7,572 bases of DNA from a virus (IMGVR_UViG_2531839329_000009), one strand, 5' to 3'; numbered from the stretch's first letter, positions 839 to 7,572 are shown. Translations and numbers: made by a program. The notes: a model not told the origin generated them from the letters alone.

Positions 839-877
839 CTCACTTAGCCGCGTGTCCACTATTGCTGGGTAAGATCA
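839..877 (-). repeat. IS3 terminal inverted repeat (IRL); element terminus at 877
   Basis: ...ccactattgctgggtaagatca at 856-877 is the reverse complement of the TGATCTTACCCAGCAATAGTGG terminus. Similarity to known IS3 stops abruptly after 877. IR length is approximate. Confidence 0.6.
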
Positions 878-989
878 TTACCAAAAGACTGCCGAATAAT
901 CTTCTTCCATGGCAAACCGCGACCGCGTGAAGTGTCAGAGGATTGGCTTCCTCTCATTAGCGCGTTTTTTGAGCGAGAATCAGAATAAT

Positions 990-1019
990 ATTGCTCTAAT
1001 AATTCAATATTTTTAAAAC
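990..1019 (+). promoter_or_regulatory. Copy A of a duplicated 30-bp AT-rich element (ATTGCTCTAATAA-N6-ATTTTTAAAAC); promoter-like
   Basis: 26/30 identical to 3131-3160, including exact 13-nt and 11-nt blocks. Contains TTGCTC (991-996) and TAAAAC (1014-1019) separated by 17 bp. Lies 51 bp upstream of the ATG at 1070. Confidence 0.45.
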
Positions 1020-1069
1020 GTGATGTACACTCATAACGTTTTTTATTAGAACAATCTACAAGGTGCACT

Positions 1070-1288
1070 ATGTGGCCATTCCGACGGAAATATCACTACT
1101 GGCTGATCGCCTTTGTTACGCCGACCGGCGGTATCAGGCATGTCATCACCAGGTATCGCAACAAGAGACTCACCTTAGCCAGAATTTTACAGGCTGCCAT
1201 AGGGGAGGGACTGGATACAAATTGCGTAGTCCTTCCTCCTTCATACTTAGGAAAAATGACCGAAGCACAAGCTAATACGGAACTTTGA
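1070..1288 (+). CDS. Hypothetical 72-aa protein; possible upstream ORF coupled to the 1290 gene
   Basis: ATG at 1070 with AGGTG 4-9 nt upstream. Stop TGA 1286-1288 lies 1 nt before the ATG at 1290 (TGAAATG). No recognisable motif. Confidence 0.3.
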   Translation: MWPFRRKYHYWLIAFVTPTGGIRHVITRYRNKRLTLARILQAAIGEGLDTNCVVLPPSYLGKMTEAQANTEL

Positions 1289-1289
1289 A

Positions 1290-2552
1290 ATGAGCACTTC
1301 AGCACAAAACCAATCAATCGAAAATGTATCTATCCCTGACGTCCTGAATGCCGGTATCCCGGCCATTATCCAGAACATCCGGGCCGCGCAACGCCGCGTT
1401 AGTTGTGATGACCTCACAGCGCGTTTTTTTGATAATGCGGTTCAGTCAGCGGAGATGCTTCACGCACAGCTTATTGATGTTTATAACGCAGAAGCTGATA
1501 GCCATAACTCCCTGGTAGATGCAGCTGAAAATATGCAGTTGGATCTCGGTCTGAAGGGTAAAGAAATTGAAGAGCTTCAGCTGCAAATTGAACATTTGAA
1601 ACGCCAGCAACAGGACGCGATCGACGATGCGACGCATGACGCCAACCAGCGTGCTGATAATGCCGAACGTATAAGCATTGAGCTGGAAACAAAACTCAAT
1701 GAAATGACCGCGATGGTTGAACTGCGGAACTCACAGATTTCAACGCTAAAATCTCAATATAAAGAGATCATGAAACTTGATCCTTTTAACCTTGAGAAAC
1801 GCTATAACAAAGCTAAAAGCGAGCGACAGGAACTGCGTAAGCAGGTCGCCGATCTTAACCAACAGCTCAAAAAAACTATTAAAGATGCAAGCGAAGCGCG
1901 CGTGGCATTTGCTAATAAAAAAGCAGAGGTTACCGCGCTGGTTAATGAAAATGCTAAATTTGCGACGCTCAAGAAGGAAATGTATGGCATTACTGAGCGC
2001 CGTTTTCCTGCAAGCAAACTCCATCCGACGTTAGGGCAAATCTCATTCTTCCCGCGCCTCCTGGCTTATGGGATCTCATCGCCTAAAGAGTTCAATAACG
2101 AGCGTCCTTATATCGTTTCTAAGCTGGACTTTGCTTATCAGTTCTGCTGCGACATGGGCTATGCCATTGATATCCGAATCAACGAATGGTTGATGCCAAA
2201 CTTCCAGCCGTTGGCAATTTTCCGCGAGTTCCAGCCGGAAGGTTGGGTAGAGTTCTTCCATGAATTGATCTGTAAAGAGATGGAAAGCCGCCGCCCGGAA
2301 CTGGTCCGTCGAGTTGAGTGGGCGCAAGAGGTTATGTTGGCAGATGCAGAGCTGCCGTTCGAACCGGAATTTATTGATGATCTGGCAGCTAAAGGGCTGC
2401 ATACCCTGTTTGATGTGGTTACCCGCCGTCATGAGCAGTTGGTTGTCGAATTGGGTTTAGAGGAAACAGCGGCAAGAAGACTTCTTGATGTTTGCTATGC
2501 ACTTAGCGATGCATGGGAAAAAGTGAACGGCGGCACTATTTACGTTCGCTGA
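1290..2552 (+). CDS. Hypothetical 420-aa protein: central coiled-coil (~aa 60-230) plus C-terminal globular domain of unknown function
   Basis: Longest ORF in the window. Heptad-like, charge-rich segment (EELQLQIEHLKRQQQ..., ...RQELRKQVADLNQQLKK...). Strong intrinsic terminator directly downstream. No catalytic motif recognised by eye. Confidence 0.75.
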   Translation: MSTSAQNQSIENVSIPDVLNAGIPAIIQNIRAAQRRVSCDDLTARFFDNAVQSAEMLHAQLIDVYNAEADSHNSLVDAAENMQLDLGLKGKEIEELQLQIEHLKRQQQDAIDDATHDANQRADNAERISIELETKLNEMTAMVELRNSQISTLKSQYKEIMKLDPFNLEKRYNKAKSERQELRKQVADLNQQLKKTIKDASEARVAFANKKAEVTALVNENAKFATLKKEMYGITERRFPASKLHPTLGQISFFPRLLAYGISSPKEFNNERPYIVSKLDFAYQFCCDMGYAIDIRINEWLMPNFQPLAIFREFQPEGWVEFFHELICKEMESRRPELVRRVEWAQEVMLADAELPFEPEFIDDLAAKGLHTLFDVVTRRHEQLVVELGLEETAARRLLDVCYALSDAWEKVNGGTIYVR

Positions 2553-2573
2553 TAGTTACAGTGTCACTTTTAA

Positions 2574-2605
2574 TGCTGGTGGAGTGCGCCCACCAGCATT
2601 TTTTT
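2574..2605 (+). terminator. Rho-independent terminator after the 420-aa gene
   Basis: Perfect 9-bp stem TGCTGGTGG (2574-2582) / CCACCAGCA (2590-2598), 7-nt loop, then T7 run 2599-2605. Begins 22 nt after the stop codon at 2550-2552. Confidence 0.7.
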
Positions 2606-2624
2606 CGTCCAATGAGGAGGGCAT

Positions 2625-3131
2625 TTGAGTATTTTCAATAAACACGCACACCAGGAACGTCCGTACATTGTCATAGTAGATATTGATGGAACGATATCGG
2701 AGGCAACGGAAGACAGGCTGCATTTACTTCCACCGCCTGGCAACGGTGCATTAACAGAGCACTGGAACGAGTTTAACCTTGCCTGTGACACTGATGCTTC
2801 CATCACTCCAGTTATTGATATGGTGCGCCAGTTGTCCAGCATTTACACGCTCTGGTTTGTAACCGGGCGCTGTGAGATAGCCAGGGATAAAACACGAGCC
2901 TGGTTGCGTAAGCACGTAACAAATGGGGCAGAGCCTTTGCTATCTATGCGTCCCGCCACCGATGACAGAAATGACGGTCCAGCAAAGATTGATCTCCTTA
3001 AGAAAATTGGTCTAAGCAAAATTGCGTTCGCGCTGGAAGATAAGATTGAAGTGGCGCGTGTTTTCAGGAGGCACGGCGTGCTTACGTTAATGGTCAGGGA
3101 GTATGAAAACGCGCTTCTCCATCAACAATAA
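2625..3131 (+). CDS. HAD-superfamily phosphatase, small capless type (168 aa)
   Basis: TTG start at 2625 preceded by consensus SD GAGGAGG (2614-2620). Motif I DIDGT at aa 19-23 after a hydrophobic strand (YIVIVDIDGT). Motif II-like WFVTGR. Downstream Lys (AKIDLLKK) and acidic motif (ALEDK). Confidence 0.75.
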   Translation: MSIFNKHAHQERPYIVIVDIDGTISEATEDRLHLLPPPGNGALTEHWNEFNLACDTDASITPVIDMVRQLSSIYTLWFVTGRCEIARDKTRAWLRKHVTNGAEPLLSMRPATDDRNDGPAKIDLLKKIGLSKIAFALEDKIEVARVFRRHGVLTLMVREYENALLHQQ

Positions 3132-3160
3132 TTGCTCTAATAAATAATGATTTTTAAAAC
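3131..3160 (+). promoter_or_regulatory. Copy B of the duplicated 30-bp AT-rich element; promoter-like
   Basis: See copy A. Overlaps the HAD stop codon (3129-3131) and lies 70 bp upstream of the ATG at 3230. TTGCTC at 3132-3137 and TAAAAC at 3155-3160 with 17-bp spacing. Confidence 0.45.
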
Positions 3161-3167
3161 AGAGAAA

Positions 3168-3202
3168 GTGAAAATAAAAACATGCCGCAAGGCGCGGCAT
3201 GT
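3168..3202 (-). terminator. Hairpin with flanking A-tract; oriented like a minus-strand intrinsic terminator
   Basis: Perfect 9-bp stem ACATGCCGC (3180-3188) / GCGGCATGT (3194-3202) with 5-nt loop. The plus-strand A-rich run 3168-3180 becomes a U-tract only for minus-strand transcripts. No U-tract on the plus side. Confidence 0.35.
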
Positions 3203-3229
3203 ATCCAATCAATCACAGGAGCTGAAAAT

Positions 3230-3316
3230 ATGAACACGGCATTCAAAATCATTATGGCCGCGATCTATTTCTGGCTGTTCTCTATCACTTTTGGCGGCAT
3301 CGTCGCACATGGGTAA
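3230..3316 (+). CDS. Small hydrophobic peptide (28 aa, MNTAFKIIMAAIYFWLFSITFGGIVAHG); predicted single transmembrane helix
   Basis: ATG at 3230 with AGGAG at 3217-3221 (8-nt spacing). Stop TAA 3314-3316 lies inside the SD of the next gene. Too short for the ORF track. Confidence 0.4.
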   Translation: MNTAFKIIMAAIYFWLFSITFGGIVAHG

Positions 3317-3325
3317 GGGGGATGC

Positions 3326-3904
3326 ATGAAAGGCGAAGTGAAAGAGCGCGGCATGATTTTTAACGATGAGATGGTCCGGGCAATTCTTGGCGGGAATAAA
3401 ACACAGACTCGCAGGATTGTTGAAGAAAAATTCTATGGACGGGCAGTGGCCGCAGAGTTGCTTGCCAAGCATTGTCCATATGGTCAACCGGGCGATCGTA
3501 TTTGGGTTCGCGAAACCTACCGGGTACATGGCAAAGCGACGGACGTCGCAACGCTGGTTTATCGCGCAAGCGTGCGTAACTCCTGGACAGAACAAACGCA
3601 CCGGGTTCCGGTCGAGGTTTGTAATAAACCAGTATCAGAAAAGTGGACGCCATCAATTCACATGCCGCGCTGGGCATCGCGCATTCTTTTGGAAATTACC
3701 GACGTGCGTGTGGAACGGCTGCATGACATGAGCGAGGAAGATGCTAAAGCAGAAGGCGCAACTCCGGCGACGTACAAGATTACGCCATCTGAAGCTGTTT
3801 ATCGCGTTGGTTTTGGTGATATCTGGCGCAGTATTTACGGGCAGGATAACTGGCTATCTAACCAGTTGGTATGGGTAATCGAGTTTAAGCGCATTCAGGA
3901 ATAA
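3326..3904 (+). CDS. ASCH (PUA-like) domain protein, 192 aa
   Basis: SD AAGGGGGA then ATG 3326. N-terminal FNDEMVRAILGGNKTQTRR resembles the ASCH GxKxxExR-type motif (compare E. coli YqfB ...DILAGRKTITIR...). GDRIWVRE and C-terminal VWVIEFK also parallel YqfB (GDVLRV, YVIEFK). Alternative start at ATG 3353. Confidence 0.8.
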   Translation: MKGEVKERGMIFNDEMVRAILGGNKTQTRRIVEEKFYGRAVAAELLAKHCPYGQPGDRIWVRETYRVHGKATDVATLVYRASVRNSWTEQTHRVPVEVCNKPVSEKWTPSIHMPRWASRILLEITDVRVERLHDMSEEDAKAEGATPATYKITPSEAVYRVGFGDIWRSIYGQDNWLSNQLVWVIEFKRIQE

Positions 3905-3907
3905 ACC

Positions 3908-4280
3908 GTGAGTATGCATCAAGTCGTCAGCTTTTCAGGTGGACGAACATCGGCTTATCTCGTTCATCTGATGGAAGCACAGCGAAAAGCTGGCGTTAGC
4001 GTCCATTTCATTTTTATGGATAGCAGAACTGGAAAGCAACGAAGTCCGTGAAGTCGGAAATCAGTTTCTTGTTGTTCGCCATCCTGGGAAAACTCCTGTC
4101 ATCAAGCACTGCACTGGTGACCTGGAAGAGTTTCTGCGGAAGTTAATCGAACAAGACCCGTTAGTAACTATCGACATCATTACGCATCGCTATTACGGGA
4201 TTGGCGGTCAATGGGTTCAGGATGCAGTTGAGTATCTGCATATGATGTCTGACGCTGGCATTCGCATCAAAGGAGAGTGA
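3908..4280 (+). pseudogene. Disrupted ORF with PP-loop-like N-terminus (VVSFSGGRTSAYLVHL); apparent frameshift
   Basis: A frame starting GTG 3908 / ATG 3914 stops at 4049-4051 after 45 codons. A second frame is open 3972-4280 with no start codon and ends 1 nt before the next gene. One indel within 3972-4048, for example in the T5 run 4011-4015, would restore a ~122-codon ORF that exactly fills the gap between flanking genes. Confidence 0.4.
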
Positions 4281-4281
4281 T

Positions 4282-4797
4282 ATGGCGTTAACACACCGCG
4301 AACTCTGTCAGATTGCGTACAAGTTCCTTAAGCGCAACGGGTTCAAGGTTTGTTTTCATGACCGCTTTATAGCTGTAACCAGTACCGGAGAACAGCCAGA
4401 TGCTATGGGATTCAGAAATTCAGCATCATGCCTGATAGAGGCGAAGTGTTCTCGTGCTGACTTGTTGGCAGATAGAAAAAAGCGTTTTCGTAAAAATCCG
4501 TCTCTTGGAATGGGCGACTGGCGATTCTTTATTAGTGAGCCGGGAATTATTTCAATTGAGGATTTACCACCTGGCTGGGGATTACTTCACGTTGTTAACG
4601 GAAGAGTACGGAAAGTACATGGGTGGCCCAAGGGTAATTGCTGTTGGGGTAATCCTGACGATAAGCCATTTACTGGAAATAAGCAGGTTGAATGCGATTA
4701 CATGTTATCTGCATTAAGGCGCATGGAGTTGAGAGGGCACCTTAATGAAATATATGACGGTGTAATTGTTAATAAGAAAGAAGGAAACGCGGCATGA
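4282..4797 (+). CDS. MmcB-like PD-(D/E)xK nuclease-fold protein, 171 aa
   Basis: Strong SD AGGAG (4271-4275) then ATG 4282. Motif ...GEQPDAMGF...CLIEAKCSRADLLADRKKRF gives D40 and E53-x-K55, the PD...(E)xK arrangement followed by the SRADL signature I associate with the MmcB-like family. Stop overlaps the next start (ATGA at 4794-4797). Confidence 0.75.
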   Translation: MALTHRELCQIAYKFLKRNGFKVCFHDRFIAVTSTGEQPDAMGFRNSASCLIEAKCSRADLLADRKKRFRKNPSLGMGDWRFFISEPGIISIEDLPPGWGLLHVVNGRVRKVHGWPKGNCCWGNPDDKPFTGNKQVECDYMLSALRRMELRGHLNEIYDGVIVNKKEGNAA

Positions 4798-5675
4798 CCA
4801 CTATTACCAAAGAGCGACTACTGACAATCAAGCAGTGGCGCGAAACATACGGACCTGGTAGCAACGTTGTACTGCCAGCAGAAGAAGCGGAAGAACTGGC
4901 ACGAATTGCTCTGGCATCACTGGAAGCAAAACCAATAGGTGCATTCCACATTGCAGAACAGCAAGTTGACGGCACAAGTGACTACCTCAAGGATGGAGAA
5001 TGGCCTATTGATAATGGAATTATTGAGGTCTACGCCGCTCCCCCCGTTCCAGTAGTACCGGAAGAAAAACCAATGCCTAACGCTCTAAGCATGCTTGAAA
5101 GAGAGATCACACAACTGATTGGTGATGCGCAGGAAGCCACTGTTACTGGCTATGAGTTAATCGCTGAAGCTTGGCGTTTGATGGATGGACAAGACCCTAA
5201 AACCAGCGATTGGCATAGCAAGGCTTCGAAGTATTTAAATTCCAATATTGTAGAAAAAGTTGATGATGACCGTATTGATGCAATTAAGGCTGTTTTGCGT
5301 AGACTGGCTGGCAACTATCCGGATATTCCGGATAGTTCGGTGCCTACGCCAGGAAAGGGCGTCACCGGTGAACGTATCCGCATTAAGCCGCATGTTTATC
5401 GCGAACTGGTTAACCGTCTCCACGATACAGCGATCAAGTGTGCTGGCACCCAGCAATTACGAGAAAGAATTAGCCGTGTTTTGGGCGACGTTATTACGCC
5501 ATATCATCATAAACAAGCCGAGAAAAGCGGTCTGGAAAGGTGTCATCTTGAGGCAGCATTAAACATTAAGCCGGGGCATACGCTTGGCATTATTGATGCA
5601 CTGTTGGTTCATAAGATGGCCAGGGCTTTATTGTCGTTGGTGGACGCTGGTGATACAAGCGAGGGTGAAGTATGA
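4794..5675 (+). CDS. Hypothetical protein, 293 aa, acidic, no recognisable motif
   Basis: ATG 4794 with AAGGA 8 nt upstream. Translationally coupled on both sides (ATGA overlaps at 4794-4797 and 5672-5675). Composition is protein-like throughout. Confidence 0.75.
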   Translation: MTTITKERLLTIKQWRETYGPGSNVVLPAEEAEELARIALASLEAKPIGAFHIAEQQVDGTSDYLKDGEWPIDNGIIEVYAAPPVPVVPEEKPMPNALSMLEREITQLIGDAQEATVTGYELIAEAWRLMDGQDPKTSDWHSKASKYLNSNIVEKVDDDRIDAIKAVLRRLAGNYPDIPDSSVPTPGKGVTGERIRIKPHVYRELVNRLHDTAIKCAGTQQLRERISRVLGDVITPYHHKQAEKSGLERCHLEAALNIKPGHTLGIIDALLVHKMARALLSLVDAGDTSEGEV

Positions 5676-6034
5676 GAGTTGCAGATCACATCAAACACCT
5701 TGAAAGAATTATCGAAAACGGTGAACTCTTAAGAGATCAGATGAGACGCACGGCAGAAGCCAGGGAGGCGATAATCCGCAGTCAGGCTGGTAAATTAAAG
5801 CAATTGTCAGAGATTAACACGCTATACAAGAACAGACGTAACCGGGCGGTGATGCGGCTTCAGAAAGCACGTAATGAAATTAAATTGGTGGAGGCAAAAC
5901 TGAAAAAACAGATCCAGCGTTACGATCAGCAAGATGCTTTTTATGCCGCCATCAAGGCGGCTGCTAATGAAATAGGCATCTGGAAGTTGCTGGTGGAGAA
6001 AGCAAAGACGAAGTTAAATGCCAACGAAAGCTGA
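5672..6034 (+). CDS. Hypothetical basic coiled-coil protein, 120 aa
   Basis: ATG 5672 overlapping the upstream stop, with GAGGG upstream. Charged heptad-like sequence (LRDQMRRTAEAREAIIRSQAGKLKQL..., EIKLVEAKLKKQIQRYDQQ). Last gene of the coupled operon. Confidence 0.7.
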   Translation: MRVADHIKHLERIIENGELLRDQMRRTAEAREAIIRSQAGKLKQLSEINTLYKNRRNRAVMRLQKARNEIKLVEAKLKKQIQRYDQQDAFYAAIKAAANEIGIWKLLVEKAKTKLNANES

Positions 6035-6093
6035 ACTACAGGTGCCCACCAGCACATACAGAAAATGATTGTTTCCACATCAAGGAGATTTTA

Positions 6094-6110
6094 ATGTTTC
6101 ACTGAAACAT
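6094..6110. promoter_or_regulatory. Perfect 17-bp palindrome ATGTTTCA-c-TGAAACAT
   Basis: Read directly from the sequence. It sits where the plus-strand operon and the minus-strand small ORF converge and overlaps that ORF's stop codon (6110-6112). The same half-site recurs at 6361-6378. Confidence 0.3.
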
Positions 6111-6247
6111 TAAGTAAGCCAGTGCATAATTCCATTTTTTACTGACCTTAAAAGCAAAATCAAAACGATGATGAGGATAATAGCCAGAATCTGGCTAATA
6201 ATAGGCGCATCTAAAAATGCACTCAGGAACTGAAAAAAAGCGTTCAT
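6110..6247 (-). CDS. Small hydrophobic protein, 45 aa (MNAFFQFLSAFLDAPIISQILAIILIIVLILLLRSVKNGIMHWLT); single TM helix then basic tail
   Basis: Minus-strand ATG at 6247-6245 with AAGGA about 9 nt upstream. Below the ORF-track size cutoff. An AT-rich context can produce hydrophobic ORFs by chance, so this is tentative. Confidence 0.35.
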   Translation of the reverse strand: MNAFFQFLSAFLDAPIISQILAIILIIVLILLLRSVKNGIMHWLT

Positions 6248-6360
6248 TCAGGTGGTTCCTTGTCAAATGTAAAGGTGCACTTGCTCACGTTGACGTAGAA
6301 ACCCAACCCCTATATAGTTGGATTCGGTGAATGAAAGTCGTTAACGTGAGCTTACGGCAC

Positions 6361-6378
6361 ATGTTTTCGGAAAAACAT
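6361..6378. promoter_or_regulatory. Inverted repeat ATGTTTT-cgga-AAAACAT, related to the 6094-6110 palindrome
   Basis: 7-bp arms with a 4-nt spacer. Lies ~115 bp upstream of the minus-strand small ORF start, inside the AT-rich region. Confidence 0.3.
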
Positions 6379-6735
6379 CAGGGAACGGCTAATTCCTTGA
6401 TGCGGGTGGGGTCTGTAATGCAGACCCTATCTATTAACGTCATGATTGCATCTCAAATTTTCTCCTTATCTTCAATTAATCTACATTCATTTCATCTGTT
6501 AGCCACCACAATATGTAGAAAATGGCCCTCTTGCAAGTGCATAACTTTGTGGATAACTCAGGAAGGAAAAAGTGGCTTTCGCGCACCTTCGGTCAGACAA
6601 GGTGTCCGGGAAAGTCAACGCAAAGAAAAAAATTGTTAAAAATAACGTTTGTTGGAATTGTATATTTTTATCCCCTTCAAACATCTTTTTTTAGAGACAG
6701 AAAAACATATCGTAACAACATATATACAGTATTAA

Positions 6736-6966
6736 GAGGCGAGTATTATCCTGCGGTGGGAATTCTGGGCGCTGTTAGATTCGACTTTCTCAGCAGGATT
6801 ACATCGTCAACTTGCGACGTTGCCGTATGACTTTCGTGTAATAGGTGACAATGATGCGGCTAGTGAGTTACTTGTGAAGTTTTTCGGAAAAGGTTTTGTG
6901 GCCTCGGATCTTGATGAGCTACAGCAACATGAAGTGTCTAATTTGATTTTTAGCCATAGCCAATAA
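6736..6966 (+). other. Open frame (76 codons) with protein-like composition but no ATG/GTG near its 5' end; possible small protein with unusual start, or gene remnant
   Basis: Frame open from 6736 to stop TAA 6964-6966 (...ILRWEFWALLDSTFSAGLHRQLATLPYDFRVIGDNDAASELLVKFFGKGFVASDLDELQQHEVSNLIFSHSQ). SD-like AAGAGG at 6734-6739 is followed only by ATT/ATC/CTG codons at 6745-6753. Terminator-like hairpin downstream. Confidence 0.3.
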
Positions 6967-6982
6967 GCCTCCCTCCTCCATC

Positions 6983-7003
6983 AAGGCCACAATTTGTGAC
7001 CTT
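6983..7003 (+). terminator. Terminator-like hairpin (AAGGCCACAA / TTGTGACCTT, one mismatch) followed by a T-rich stretch
   Basis: Stem pairs 9 of 10 positions. T-rich run TTTGTTTTCTGCTTTTTCTTATTT at 7011-7034 is separated from the stem by 7 nt, so this is a weak call. Confidence 0.3.
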
Positions 7004-7092
7004 AAACAATTTGTTTTCTGCTTTTTCTTATTTGAGGAAATAACGTTGTTGACAGCTAATAGGCTCGTTGTTGTTATACATGCCTGTATAGA

Positions 7093-7271
7093 TTATGACC
7101 GTAAATTATTAGCGGATTTTAAGCCATATTCACCGTTGTAGAAATTACTCATGTTCCATTCATTAGGAAGTTCTTTTCTGTCCAATGTATAGTGGCGCAC
7201 GATATAACGATCTTCATCTTCTTCGATGGACAGGCGGACATAGCCAATGTGAATCACCGATACGGGCGGTG
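7093..7271 (-). pseudogene. 3' remnant (58 codons) of a minus-strand ORF truncated by the IS1 insertion
   Basis: Minus-strand frame is open from the IS1 junction to stop at 7095-7093 (...VSVIHIGYVRLSIEEDEDRYIVRHYTLDRKELPNEWNMSNFYNGEYGLKSANNLRS). The same frame runs on into IS1 sequence, so the 5' part is missing. No start codon available. Confidence 0.3.
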
Positions 7272-7294
7272 GGTGATGATGCCAACTTACTGAT
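7272..7294 (+). repeat. IS1 left terminal inverted repeat (23 bp)
   Basis: GGTGATGATGCCAACTTACTGAT at 7272-7294. The flanking sequence ...CGGGCGGTG is unrelated to IS1. Confidence 0.8.
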
Positions 7295-7326
7295 TTAGTG
7301 TATGATGGTGTTTTTGAGGTGCTCCA

Positions 7327-7572
7327 GTGGCTTCTGTTTCTATCAGCTGTCCCTCCTGTTCAGCTACTGACGGGGTGGTGCGTAACGGCAAAAGCACTGC
7401 CGGACATCAGCGCTATCTCTGCTCTCACTGCCGTAAAACATGGCAACTGCAGTTCACTTACACCGCTTCTCAACCCGGTACGCACCAGAAAATCATTGAT
7501 ATGGCCATGAATGGCGTTGGATGCCGGGCAACTGCCCGCATTATGGGCGTTGGCCTCAACACGATTTTACGT
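7327..7572 (+). CDS. insA: IS1 InsA, 3'-partial (first 82 of 91 codons)
   Basis: GTG start at 7327 translates to [43 protein letters not shown]...GVGLNTILR. The track ORF 7298-7510 is in a different frame and is not InsA. Confidence 0.85.

Follow-up and report, generated by a model that had tools for sequence, protein, structure and literature searches.

A neighboring ASCH-type gene and MmcB-like nuclease gene in a viral contig very probably belong to a mosaic pmgT–pmgV operon of a P1/P7-like phage-plasmid

The viral DNA stretch IMGVR_UViG_2531839329_000009 (7,572 nucleotides, hereafter the window, by which we mean the whole stretch that was analyzed) contains at positions 3230–6034 of its plus strand six closely packed reading frames, one of which encodes a protein resembling the ASCH family and another a nuclease of the PD-(D/E)xK superfamily. 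A first-pass annotation made from the sequence alone read these frames as a candidate defense module and did not recognize their combination as a described system. This locus raises the question of whether the two proteins are components of one machine or have become neighbors by another route. We consider it very likely that 3230–6034 is the pmgT–pmgV operon of a P1/P7-like phage-plasmid, a mosaic accessory operon and not a dedicated two-part defense system. The combination has in fact been described, as the stretch from upf86.8 to upf90.8 in the P7 version of the pmgT operon, behind operator Op88; P7 (AF503408) and hundreds of plasmids carry annotated, near-identical copies of each intact gene, and the region is an already known operon in a new but trivial deletion/mosaic variant.

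By megablast against phage and plasmid collections, positions 876–7271 are approximately 98% identical to P7 and to numerous P1-like phage-plasmids from Escherichia coli, Salmonella, and Shigella. This segment is the backbone of a P1/P7-type phage-plasmid (prophage), bracketed by the insertion sequences (IS) IS3 and IS1. An earlier description of the locus as IS-flanked accessory DNA is correct in its borders, with IS3 ending at 875 and IS1 starting at 7273, but the DNA between them is P1/P7 backbone and not anonymous accessory DNA. The frames lie between pap and the pmgV/humD–phd–doc region with the gene order of the P1-like backbone conserved, which is the place held between pap and humD/phd–doc by the pmgT–pmgU–pmgV operon of P1 and the "hea" operon of P7. 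They correspond to upf86.8, upf89.0, upf89.5, and upf90.8 of P7 and to pmgT, pmgU, and pmgV of P1, and BLASTP of the window proteins finds homologs of all three P1 proteins (43% identity to PmgT, 93% to PmgU, and 97% to PmgV). In common with the P1 and P7 operons, the window has a homologous first gene of the PmgT family, the same last gene (PmgV, 97–99%), a PmgU-type C-terminal domain, and an operator, promoter region, leader hairpin, and small peptide open reading frame (ORF) that are 98% identical.

The signals at the 5′ end are those of a C1-controlled operon. The C1 repressor operator Op88 (P1 OpmgT, P7 Op(hea); plus strand, 3131–3147, ATTGCTCTAATAAATAA), which has two mismatches to the 17-bp consensus, is located immediately 3′ of the pap stop codon and falls, column by column of the alignment, on the operators annotated in P1 and P7. 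The window contains two C1 sites, and none of 200 shuffles gave two or more. Two predicted sigma-70 promoters, P2pmgT and P1pmgT (plus strand, 3132–3175), overlap Op88 and were transferred from the P1 annotation by alignment (98% of columns), and the 260-bp leader as a whole has 98% alignment identity with those of P1 and P7. The conserved operator leads us to infer that C1 keeps the operon off in the lysogen and that expression starts early once the phage infects or is induced. The leader also contains a 10-bp G+C-rich hairpin (3180–3202) whose stem P1 and P7 share without change; a single flanking base differs in P1. Because an A-run precedes this hairpin, it reads as an intrinsic terminator for minus-strand transcription only, and it may serve as a stabilizer of the mRNA 5′-end or as a block to antisense read-through. 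The leader is followed by a putative coding ORF for a hydrophobic 28-aa peptide (MNTAFKIIMAAIYFWLFSITFGGIVAHG; plus strand, 3230–3316) with an AGGAG ribosome-binding site 8 nt upstream. The ORF is identical to P1 in 86 of 87 bases (the one difference is silent) and to P7 in 87 of 87, and the peptide is the same in both. It is absent from the annotation of the P1 record, the Prokaryotic Genome Annotation Pipeline (PGAP) annotates a longer 44-aa version, and a search of PHROG returned no match. The peptide, which resembles a single helix, may act as a small membrane protein or as a leader peptide.

The overlapping and near-overlapping frames had been taken as a sign of six co-translated genes. 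The junctions are as described: TAA at 3314–3316 is followed by ATG at 3326, TAA at 3902–3904 by GTG at 3908 or ATG at 3914, and TGA at 4278–4280 by ATG at 4282, and there are ATGA overlaps at 4794–4797 and 5672–5675. The region is one operon, but it does not hold six intact genes, as two of the frames are pseudogene pieces; tight gene packing is usual in phage operons and is no evidence of a functional system. The first piece (plus strand, 3908–4022; phrog_424, expect value [E] 1e-8) is the N-terminus of a PAPS-reductase-family gene with the PP-loop SFSGGRTS. Its open frame of 47 codons (3908–4051, with the stop at 4051) matches only residues 1–37, at 95% identity, of an intact 290-aa gene at the same place in pEcoUTI1e. 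The second piece (plus strand, 4020–4280), recognized by frame analysis, lacks a start codon and corresponds to the last 75 codons of an Ead/Ea22-like gene; it is 100% identical to residues 112–186 of the Ead/Ea22-like protein of pEcoUTI1e. The two pieces are joined out of frame at 4020–4022, where BLASTN reveals a 2,134-bp deletion relative to pEcoUTI1e, and PGAP calls both of them pseudogenes in the near-identical plasmid NZ_CP135674. The ASCH gene is close to the nuclease gene because this deletion recently removed the DNA that lay between them. We also considered the PAPS-reductase stub as a DNA-modification partner of the ASCH protein; this is ruled out, as only a remnant of 37–47 codons is present in the window.

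The deletion is one instance of a wider pattern. P7, pJIE250_3, pEcoUTI1e, and pQ502 agree in their 5′ end and in pmgV, but the middle section is different in each of the four, and the interval pmgT–humD is one of eight hypervariable regions in P1-like phage-plasmids (PMC9603915). On our reading, the operon consists of a fixed 5′ end (operator, leader, small peptide ORF, and pmgT start), a fixed 3′ end (PmgU-type domain and pmgV), and a middle for which the early "ea" regions of lambdoid phages serve as free exchange partners. Its genes are neighbors through recombination history and not parts of one machine. The window differs from P7 in that it lacks upf87.4, upf87.6, and most of the Ead-like upf88.3, in that it has the PAPS-reductase stub that P7 lacks, and in the gene after the nuclease, which encodes 293 aa in the window versus 432 aa in P7. 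It differs from P1 in having the nuclease cassette and an intact, shorter allele of PmgT (43% identical). With the "ea" or exo–xis regions of lambdoid and Shiga toxin (Stx) phages it shares the Ead/Ea22 tail, the nuclease, and a DUF551/EaA-type N-terminal module, arranged as they are in Shigella phage POCJ13, and window positions 4253–5093 are also matched by Stx phages; unlike in those early-left regions, the cassettes of the window sit in a P1-type operon under C1 control.

The product of the gene that follows the nuclease is itself mosaic. This 293-aa protein (plus strand, 4794–5675; PHROGs 3323/660 in the N-terminal and 21459 in the C-terminal part) is 70% identical over residues 1–100 to the DUF551-type gp74 of POCJ13, and its C-terminal 111–122 residues are 93% identical to P1 PmgU and 99% identical to the C-terminus of P7 Upf89.5. 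On these alignments it is a chimera in which a lambdoid DUF551/EaA-type N-terminus of approximately 100 residues appears joined to a PmgU-type C-terminus. The protein is mildly acidic (isoelectric point [pI] 5.4), in agreement with the first-pass annotation, and has no Pfam match. In P1 (NC_005856, 6451–7520, compared with window 3326–5675), the first 239 residues of pmgT are of the PmgT/ASCH family and end before the VWVIEFKR strand, beyond which it enters, out of frame, the central part of a gene of the same type as that for the 293-aa protein; P1 PmgU consists of the final 111 residues of such a gene. P1 pmgT and pmgU look like deletion derivatives, and the window and P7 appear to keep a longer, presumably ancestral layout. 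The last gene encodes PmgV (120 aa; plus strand, 5672–6034; phrog_4403 at full length), a basic protein (pI 10.2) that is 97% identical to P1 PmgV and 99% to P7 Upf90.8. It had been called a coiled-coil protein, which is suggested only, as its sole family matches are weak ones to coiled-coil proteins; such matches carry no functional information.

The names of these genes offer a different account, in which pmg ("putative morphogenetic genes") would denote a role in virion assembly. Both the P1 and the P7 record carry this idea in their gene names and notes, and some entries label the 192-aa PmgT-family product a "morphogenetic protein." However, a genome-wide CRISPR interference screen of P1 scored pmgT, pmgU, and pmgV as non-essential for plaque formation (PMC10695390); the operon encodes a predicted nuclease and a probable ASCH-type protein and not structural proteins, and the region is swapped wholesale in related viable phages. 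We reject a morphogenetic role on the result of the screen and find the idea barely credible. All genes of the operon are dispensable accessory functions.

Whether the ASCH protein and the nuclease are linked can be read from their distribution. If the ASCH protein sensed modified DNA and directed the PD-(D/E)xK nuclease, with the 293-aa and 120-aa proteins as accessories, the locus would be a new modification-dependent defense system on a mobile element. P1-like prophages carry other defense genes, and a probable ASCH protein and a confidently predicted nuclease lie here within one operon. Fusions of PUA-superfamily sensors with nucleases are established restriction enzymes (PMC7897488), and fusions of restriction endonucleases (REases) with ASCH domains occur in predicted defense neighborhoods (PMC10853773). 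The window resembles these enzymes (the EVE-HNH protein VcaM4I and the SRA, YTH, and ASCH fusions to REases) in placing a PUA-type domain and a nuclease in one transcription unit, but its genes are separate, are not inherited together, and have a 2.1-kb deletion scar between them.

In a set of 80 viral contigs with a nuclease gene 99–100% identical to that of the window, 57 have at least 5 kb of upstream sequence. An ASCH homolog is present in 19 of these 57 loci, 18 of which are P1-like backbones, and 38 have none; the remaining nuclease contigs come from other prophages, probably lambdoid ones. Conversely, P1 and pEcoUTI1e have a PmgT-family gene and no nuclease. Among 5,426 complete E. coli genomes, pieces of 3230–6034 occur in 2,339, and the full arrangement occurs in one, a record in which ISVsa5 interrupts the nuclease gene. 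The genes are thus not conserved together: neither a sensor–nuclease fusion nor consistent co-inheritance, by which type IV-like restriction is recognized, is found, and the ASCH gene and the nuclease gene are not a linked unit, their adjacency being recent and accidental. Searches of PADLOC-DB left the ASCH protein, the nuclease, and PmgV without any match. Two weak matches at E of at least 0.001, one to SspD for the PAPS-reductase stub (14 bits) and one to PglZ for the 293-aa protein (15.6 bits), look like chance, so that the locus has no meaningful match to a defense model. The conserved operator further predicts that the operon is repressed in the lysogen, the state in which defense would have to work, and the ASCH motif is of a catalytic threonine type that is not obviously that of a passive reader. 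On the PADLOC result and the distribution data we reject the defense module of the first-pass annotation, whose adjacency was made by a deletion and whose nuclease is an autonomous cassette. Modification-dependent defense is largely refuted by the distribution already, and we regard it as highly improbable.

The nuclease considered alone has a clearer signature. It consists of 171 aa (plus strand, 4282–4797), is 100% identical to P7 Upf89.0, and has about 324 detectable homologs, of which the named ones are all from Enterobacterales. The PD...ExK core and SRADL signature ascribed to it are present as D40, E53, K55, and S57-R58-x-D60...D64, and in 32 homologs (59–88% identical) D40, E53, K55, R58, D60, and D64 are invariant and S57 is conserved in about 90%. 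The protein has the restriction-endonuclease-like αβββαβ core bearing D...(D/E)xK by which the PD-(D/E)xK superfamily is defined, and its AlphaFold2 model is confident (predicted local distance difference test 87.1, predicted template modeling score 0.81). A search of the PDB with the single sequence produced chance-level matches only, and a search with the family profile reached 3dnx at E 0.2 only. The profile-to-sequence alignment with 3dnx contains the shared motif IExKxSRxDFxxD, a 35-residue core fragment of 3dnx matches Pfam PF06319 ("DNA repair protein MmcB-like") at E 5e-10, and the named best matches in the BFVD library of viral structures are phage "MmcB-like DNA repair proteins." The closest structural relative of the protein is a member of the MmcB-like family, and it shares with MmcB-like proteins (PF06319; 3dnx, SPO1766; Caulobacter MmcB) the core D...(I/L)IExKxSRxD(F/L)xxD, but its family has conserved blocks of its own (GMGDWRF, GWGLL, and KPF..NKQ.EC), and its gene resides on mobile elements and is not an SOS-regulated chromosomal gene. 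The name MmcB-like is right for the fold, the core motif, and the nearest family but finds no counterpart in the Pfam MmcB model, and by sequence criteria the protein belongs to a separate small family. MmcB is a PD-(D/E)xK endonuclease with a proposed role in crosslink repair (PMC9578287). By analogy with MmcB, and also with Hjc and VRR-NUC resolvases, which it resembles less (Hjc matches in 15 of the 32 members, at E of at least 0.018), the nuclease alone would be a structure- or lesion-specific DNA endonuclease that aids repair or recombination of replicating phage DNA.

The nuclease gene moves as a unit of one. It is a precise single-gene indel relative to pEcoUTI1e, where the downstream gene comes immediately after the Ead stop codon. 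The IncI2 conjugative plasmid pA31-12 (6983–7516) has only positions 4269–4808 of the window, with an intact ORF and 96% identity. This copy lies approximately 3 kb from mobC and the relaxase gene, and small ORFs that flank it carry the "ALASLEA" N-terminal module of the 293-aa protein. The IncI2 plasmid group includes carriers of mcr-1. Among the plasmids searched, the nuclease gene is on 297, of which 108 are typed as conjugative, and the 192-aa PmgT allele is present at full length on 25 only. In POCJ13 the gene order is DUF4752, Ead/Ea22, nuclease, and DUF551 protein.

This mobility bears on the main live alternative, namely that one or more of the genes, most plausibly the nuclease cassette, is a counter-defense or establishment factor expressed on entry into a new cell, which would for example destroy a host defense nucleic acid or repair damage done by host nucleases to the incoming DNA. 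The 171-aa gene is found (at 96–100% identity) in three kinds of mobile elements, in two of which early expression is expected: P1-like phage-plasmids, which have it in their C1-repressed early operon; prophages of the lambdoid and Stx types, with Ead/Ea22, DUF4752, DUF551, and antirepressor genes beside it in phage POCJ13; and IncI2 conjugative plasmids, where its location close to the transfer genes is possibly in the leading region. The genes are also dispensable in a defense-poor laboratory host, as counter-defense genes would be. However, this explanation is drawn from context, and no homology to characterized anti-defense proteins was found; early accessory regions also house genes for recombination, lysogeny control, and exclusion, and ordinary DNA repair or recombination would account just as well for the intact nuclease motif. 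We consider counter-defense or establishment quite unlikely as the explanation of the locus.

The first gene of the operon encodes the 192-aa PmgT-family ASCH-type protein (plus strand, 3326–3904), which is 84% identical to P7 Upf86.8 and 43% identical to the first 239 residues of P1 PmgT. Both motifs on which the ASCH assignment had been based are present and conserved in 48 diverse homologs (44–95% identity): the octapeptide G23-x-K25-x-x-T28-x-R30 near the N-terminus is invariant, and the C-terminal strand VWVIEFKR is conserved as VWV(I/V)EF(K/R). A first search gave only sequences at least 95% identical, and the diverse homologs were obtained by a search of a representative library followed by a profile search; the family is large, with 42,327 cluster representatives at 50% identity (E ≤ 0.001). 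The Pfam ASCH model (PF04266) scores the window protein at 17.8 bits (E 0.0058), below the gathering cutoff of 21.2. ASCH is the sole Pfam family matched among 53 diverse members, weakly and in 12 of them (best E 3e-4), and PGAP names the protein "ASCH domain-containing protein." With the invariant octapeptide, the PGAP name, and a Pfam score under the cutoff, the protein is probably an ASCH protein, and the earlier assignment stands at that strength. Searches of the PDB gave nothing for it, by single sequence or by family profile. Its AlphaFold2 model is poor even with diverse homologs; the best ASCH match to this model is YqfB. An hhalign comparison of the family profile with YqfB aligned the N-terminal 26 residues with a probability of 17%, which we do not count as support.

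The octapeptide GxKxx[T/E/S]xR is defined as specific to ASCH (bioRxiv 10.64898/2026.02.27.708502; PMC6972931), and Lys21, Thr24, and Arg26 of E. coli YqfB are essential for its N4-acetylcytidine amidohydrolase activity (PMC6972931). Of the Lys-Thr-Glu catalytic triad and the Arg oxyanion hole of YqfB, the Lys, Thr, and Arg equivalents are invariant in the 48 homologs, and the equivalent of the Glu is left unassigned by an alignment of only 26 residues. Given the threonine-type catalytic octapeptide of YqfB, the 192-aa protein is less likely to be a sensor licensing the nuclease than a small protein that would hydrolyze or bind modified cytosine or RNA; the motif suggests an enzyme-type member and not a passive reader. 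The likeness to YqfB consists of the Thr variant of GxKxxTxR and the C-terminal (V/I)IEFK strand. The differences are that the 192-aa protein is twice as long, with large variable insertions between conserved blocks, that its family has invariant blocks (CPYGxPGDRLWVRE and PSIHMPRWASR) that YqfB lacks, and that no equivalent of Glu74 was identified in it.

In unrelated phages, distant PmgT-family genes occupy early regions, where RecT/YqaJ, SNF2 helicase and methyltransferase, HNH, or MazG-like genes are their neighbors, and no recurrent nuclease partner was found beside those examined. In several relatives, an intact PAPS-reductase-family gene (PP-loop) is located directly 3′ of the PmgT-family gene. 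Pairing of these two families appears more recurrent than that of ASCH and nuclease, and they might form a nucleic-acid modification pair. We can also imagine that both proteins serve the phage in separate ways, the nuclease as an autonomous early-entry factor of the three kinds of elements, which would counter host defense or repair defense damage minutes after entry, and the PmgT ASCH family as modification erasers that benefit the phage, acting for example on N4-acyl-cytosine in tRNA or DNA. This joint proposal is speculative, and we hold it to be unlikely.

Several points weigh against our interpretation of 3230–6034 as a mosaic pmgT–pmgV operon and not a two-part defense system. The IS-bracketed fragment may sit in an element free of C1, in which case the operon could be constitutive. 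Cooperation of PUA-family readers with nucleases is known from restriction enzymes, so that a functional interaction of the ASCH protein and the nuclease may have arisen by chance despite the genomics. The activities proposed for the operon genes are drawn from family resemblance alone, and PF06319 gave no match at E up to 1 for the window protein or up to 10 for the 32 family members. In the literature on MmcB, on ASCH in defense, and on pmgT and pmgV, we found no study of these operon proteins.

The P1/P7 backbone on the upstream side includes a second C1 operator (plus strand, 990–1006, ATTGCTCTAATAATTCA; three mismatches to the C1 consensus) at the P1 OpmgRa position, upstream of pmgR and pmgS, where an operator is annotated in both P1 and P7. 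The 72-aa pmgR homolog (plus strand, 1070–1288; phrog_3177 at full length, E 4e-47) is in the position of P1 pmgR. It is followed by pmgS (P7 shtB; plus strand, 1290–2552), which encodes 420 aa and is 99% identical to its P1 and P7 counterparts (phrog_1660, PmgS-like, E 1e-194). The final gene of the upstream operon, named pap in the P1 and P7 records, encodes a 168-aa HAD-type polynucleotide 3′-phosphatase (plus strand, 2625–3131; Pfam HAD_PNKP, E 3.5e-11; phrog_415). Rfam detected no structured RNA within the window. Downstream of pmgV, a low-G+C spacer contains on the minus strand a 45-codon ORF (6110–6247) for a very hydrophobic peptide (MNAFFQFLSAFLDAPIISQILAIILIIVLILLLRSVKNGIMHWLT), which has no PHROG match and in appearance recalls small membrane toxins or holin-like peptides. 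A 48-codon ORF at 6820–6966 aligns with the C-terminal two thirds of phrog_17952 (E 2e-26), whose "DNA primase" label is doubtful; the ORF is probably a fragment of a gene or a small ORF conserved in P1/P7.

At the left border (minus strand, 1–875), IS3 is represented by its insE/insF frames (ORFs 13–516 and 513–821). The P1/P7 match begins at 876, the IS3 terminal repeat can be read at the border, and the corresponding place in NZ_CP135674 is annotated by PGAP as an IS3 family transposase. The right border (plus strand, 7273–7572) we take to be the left end of IS1, given its terminal repeat GGTGATGATGCCAACTTACTGATTTAGTG and the insA frame that starts there, an identity that has no listed database match behind it: plasmid records matching the query 6900–7572 number more than 5,000, but P7 and the plasmids match up to 7271, and among the matches listed none extends beyond that position. 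The insertion at 7273 truncates a homolog of P7 upf93.6 (minus strand, 7093–7257), of which the C-terminal 54 residues are left; this remnant matches positions 65–118 of the 118 in phrog_5797. The closest database relative of the window is pMTY9803_untypable1 (NZ_CP135674.1), with 99.9% identity, in which ISVsa5 sits in and inactivates the nuclease gene (compared over 45642–47495) that is intact in the window. The absence of ISVsa5 from the window indicates that it derives from a different or earlier form of the element.

The conclusion that the ASCH gene and the nuclease gene are not a unit spares the cloning and phage-panel effort that would be aimed at the pair. What remains of value are two widespread phage families of obscure role, the PmgT-type ASCH proteins and the small MmcB-like nucleases. 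The nuclease, which is present in many E. coli prophages and on the 297 plasmids found in our search, and which is located in early phage regions and near the transfer origin of IncI2 plasmids, is a reasonable single-gene target for assays of counter-defense or DNA repair.

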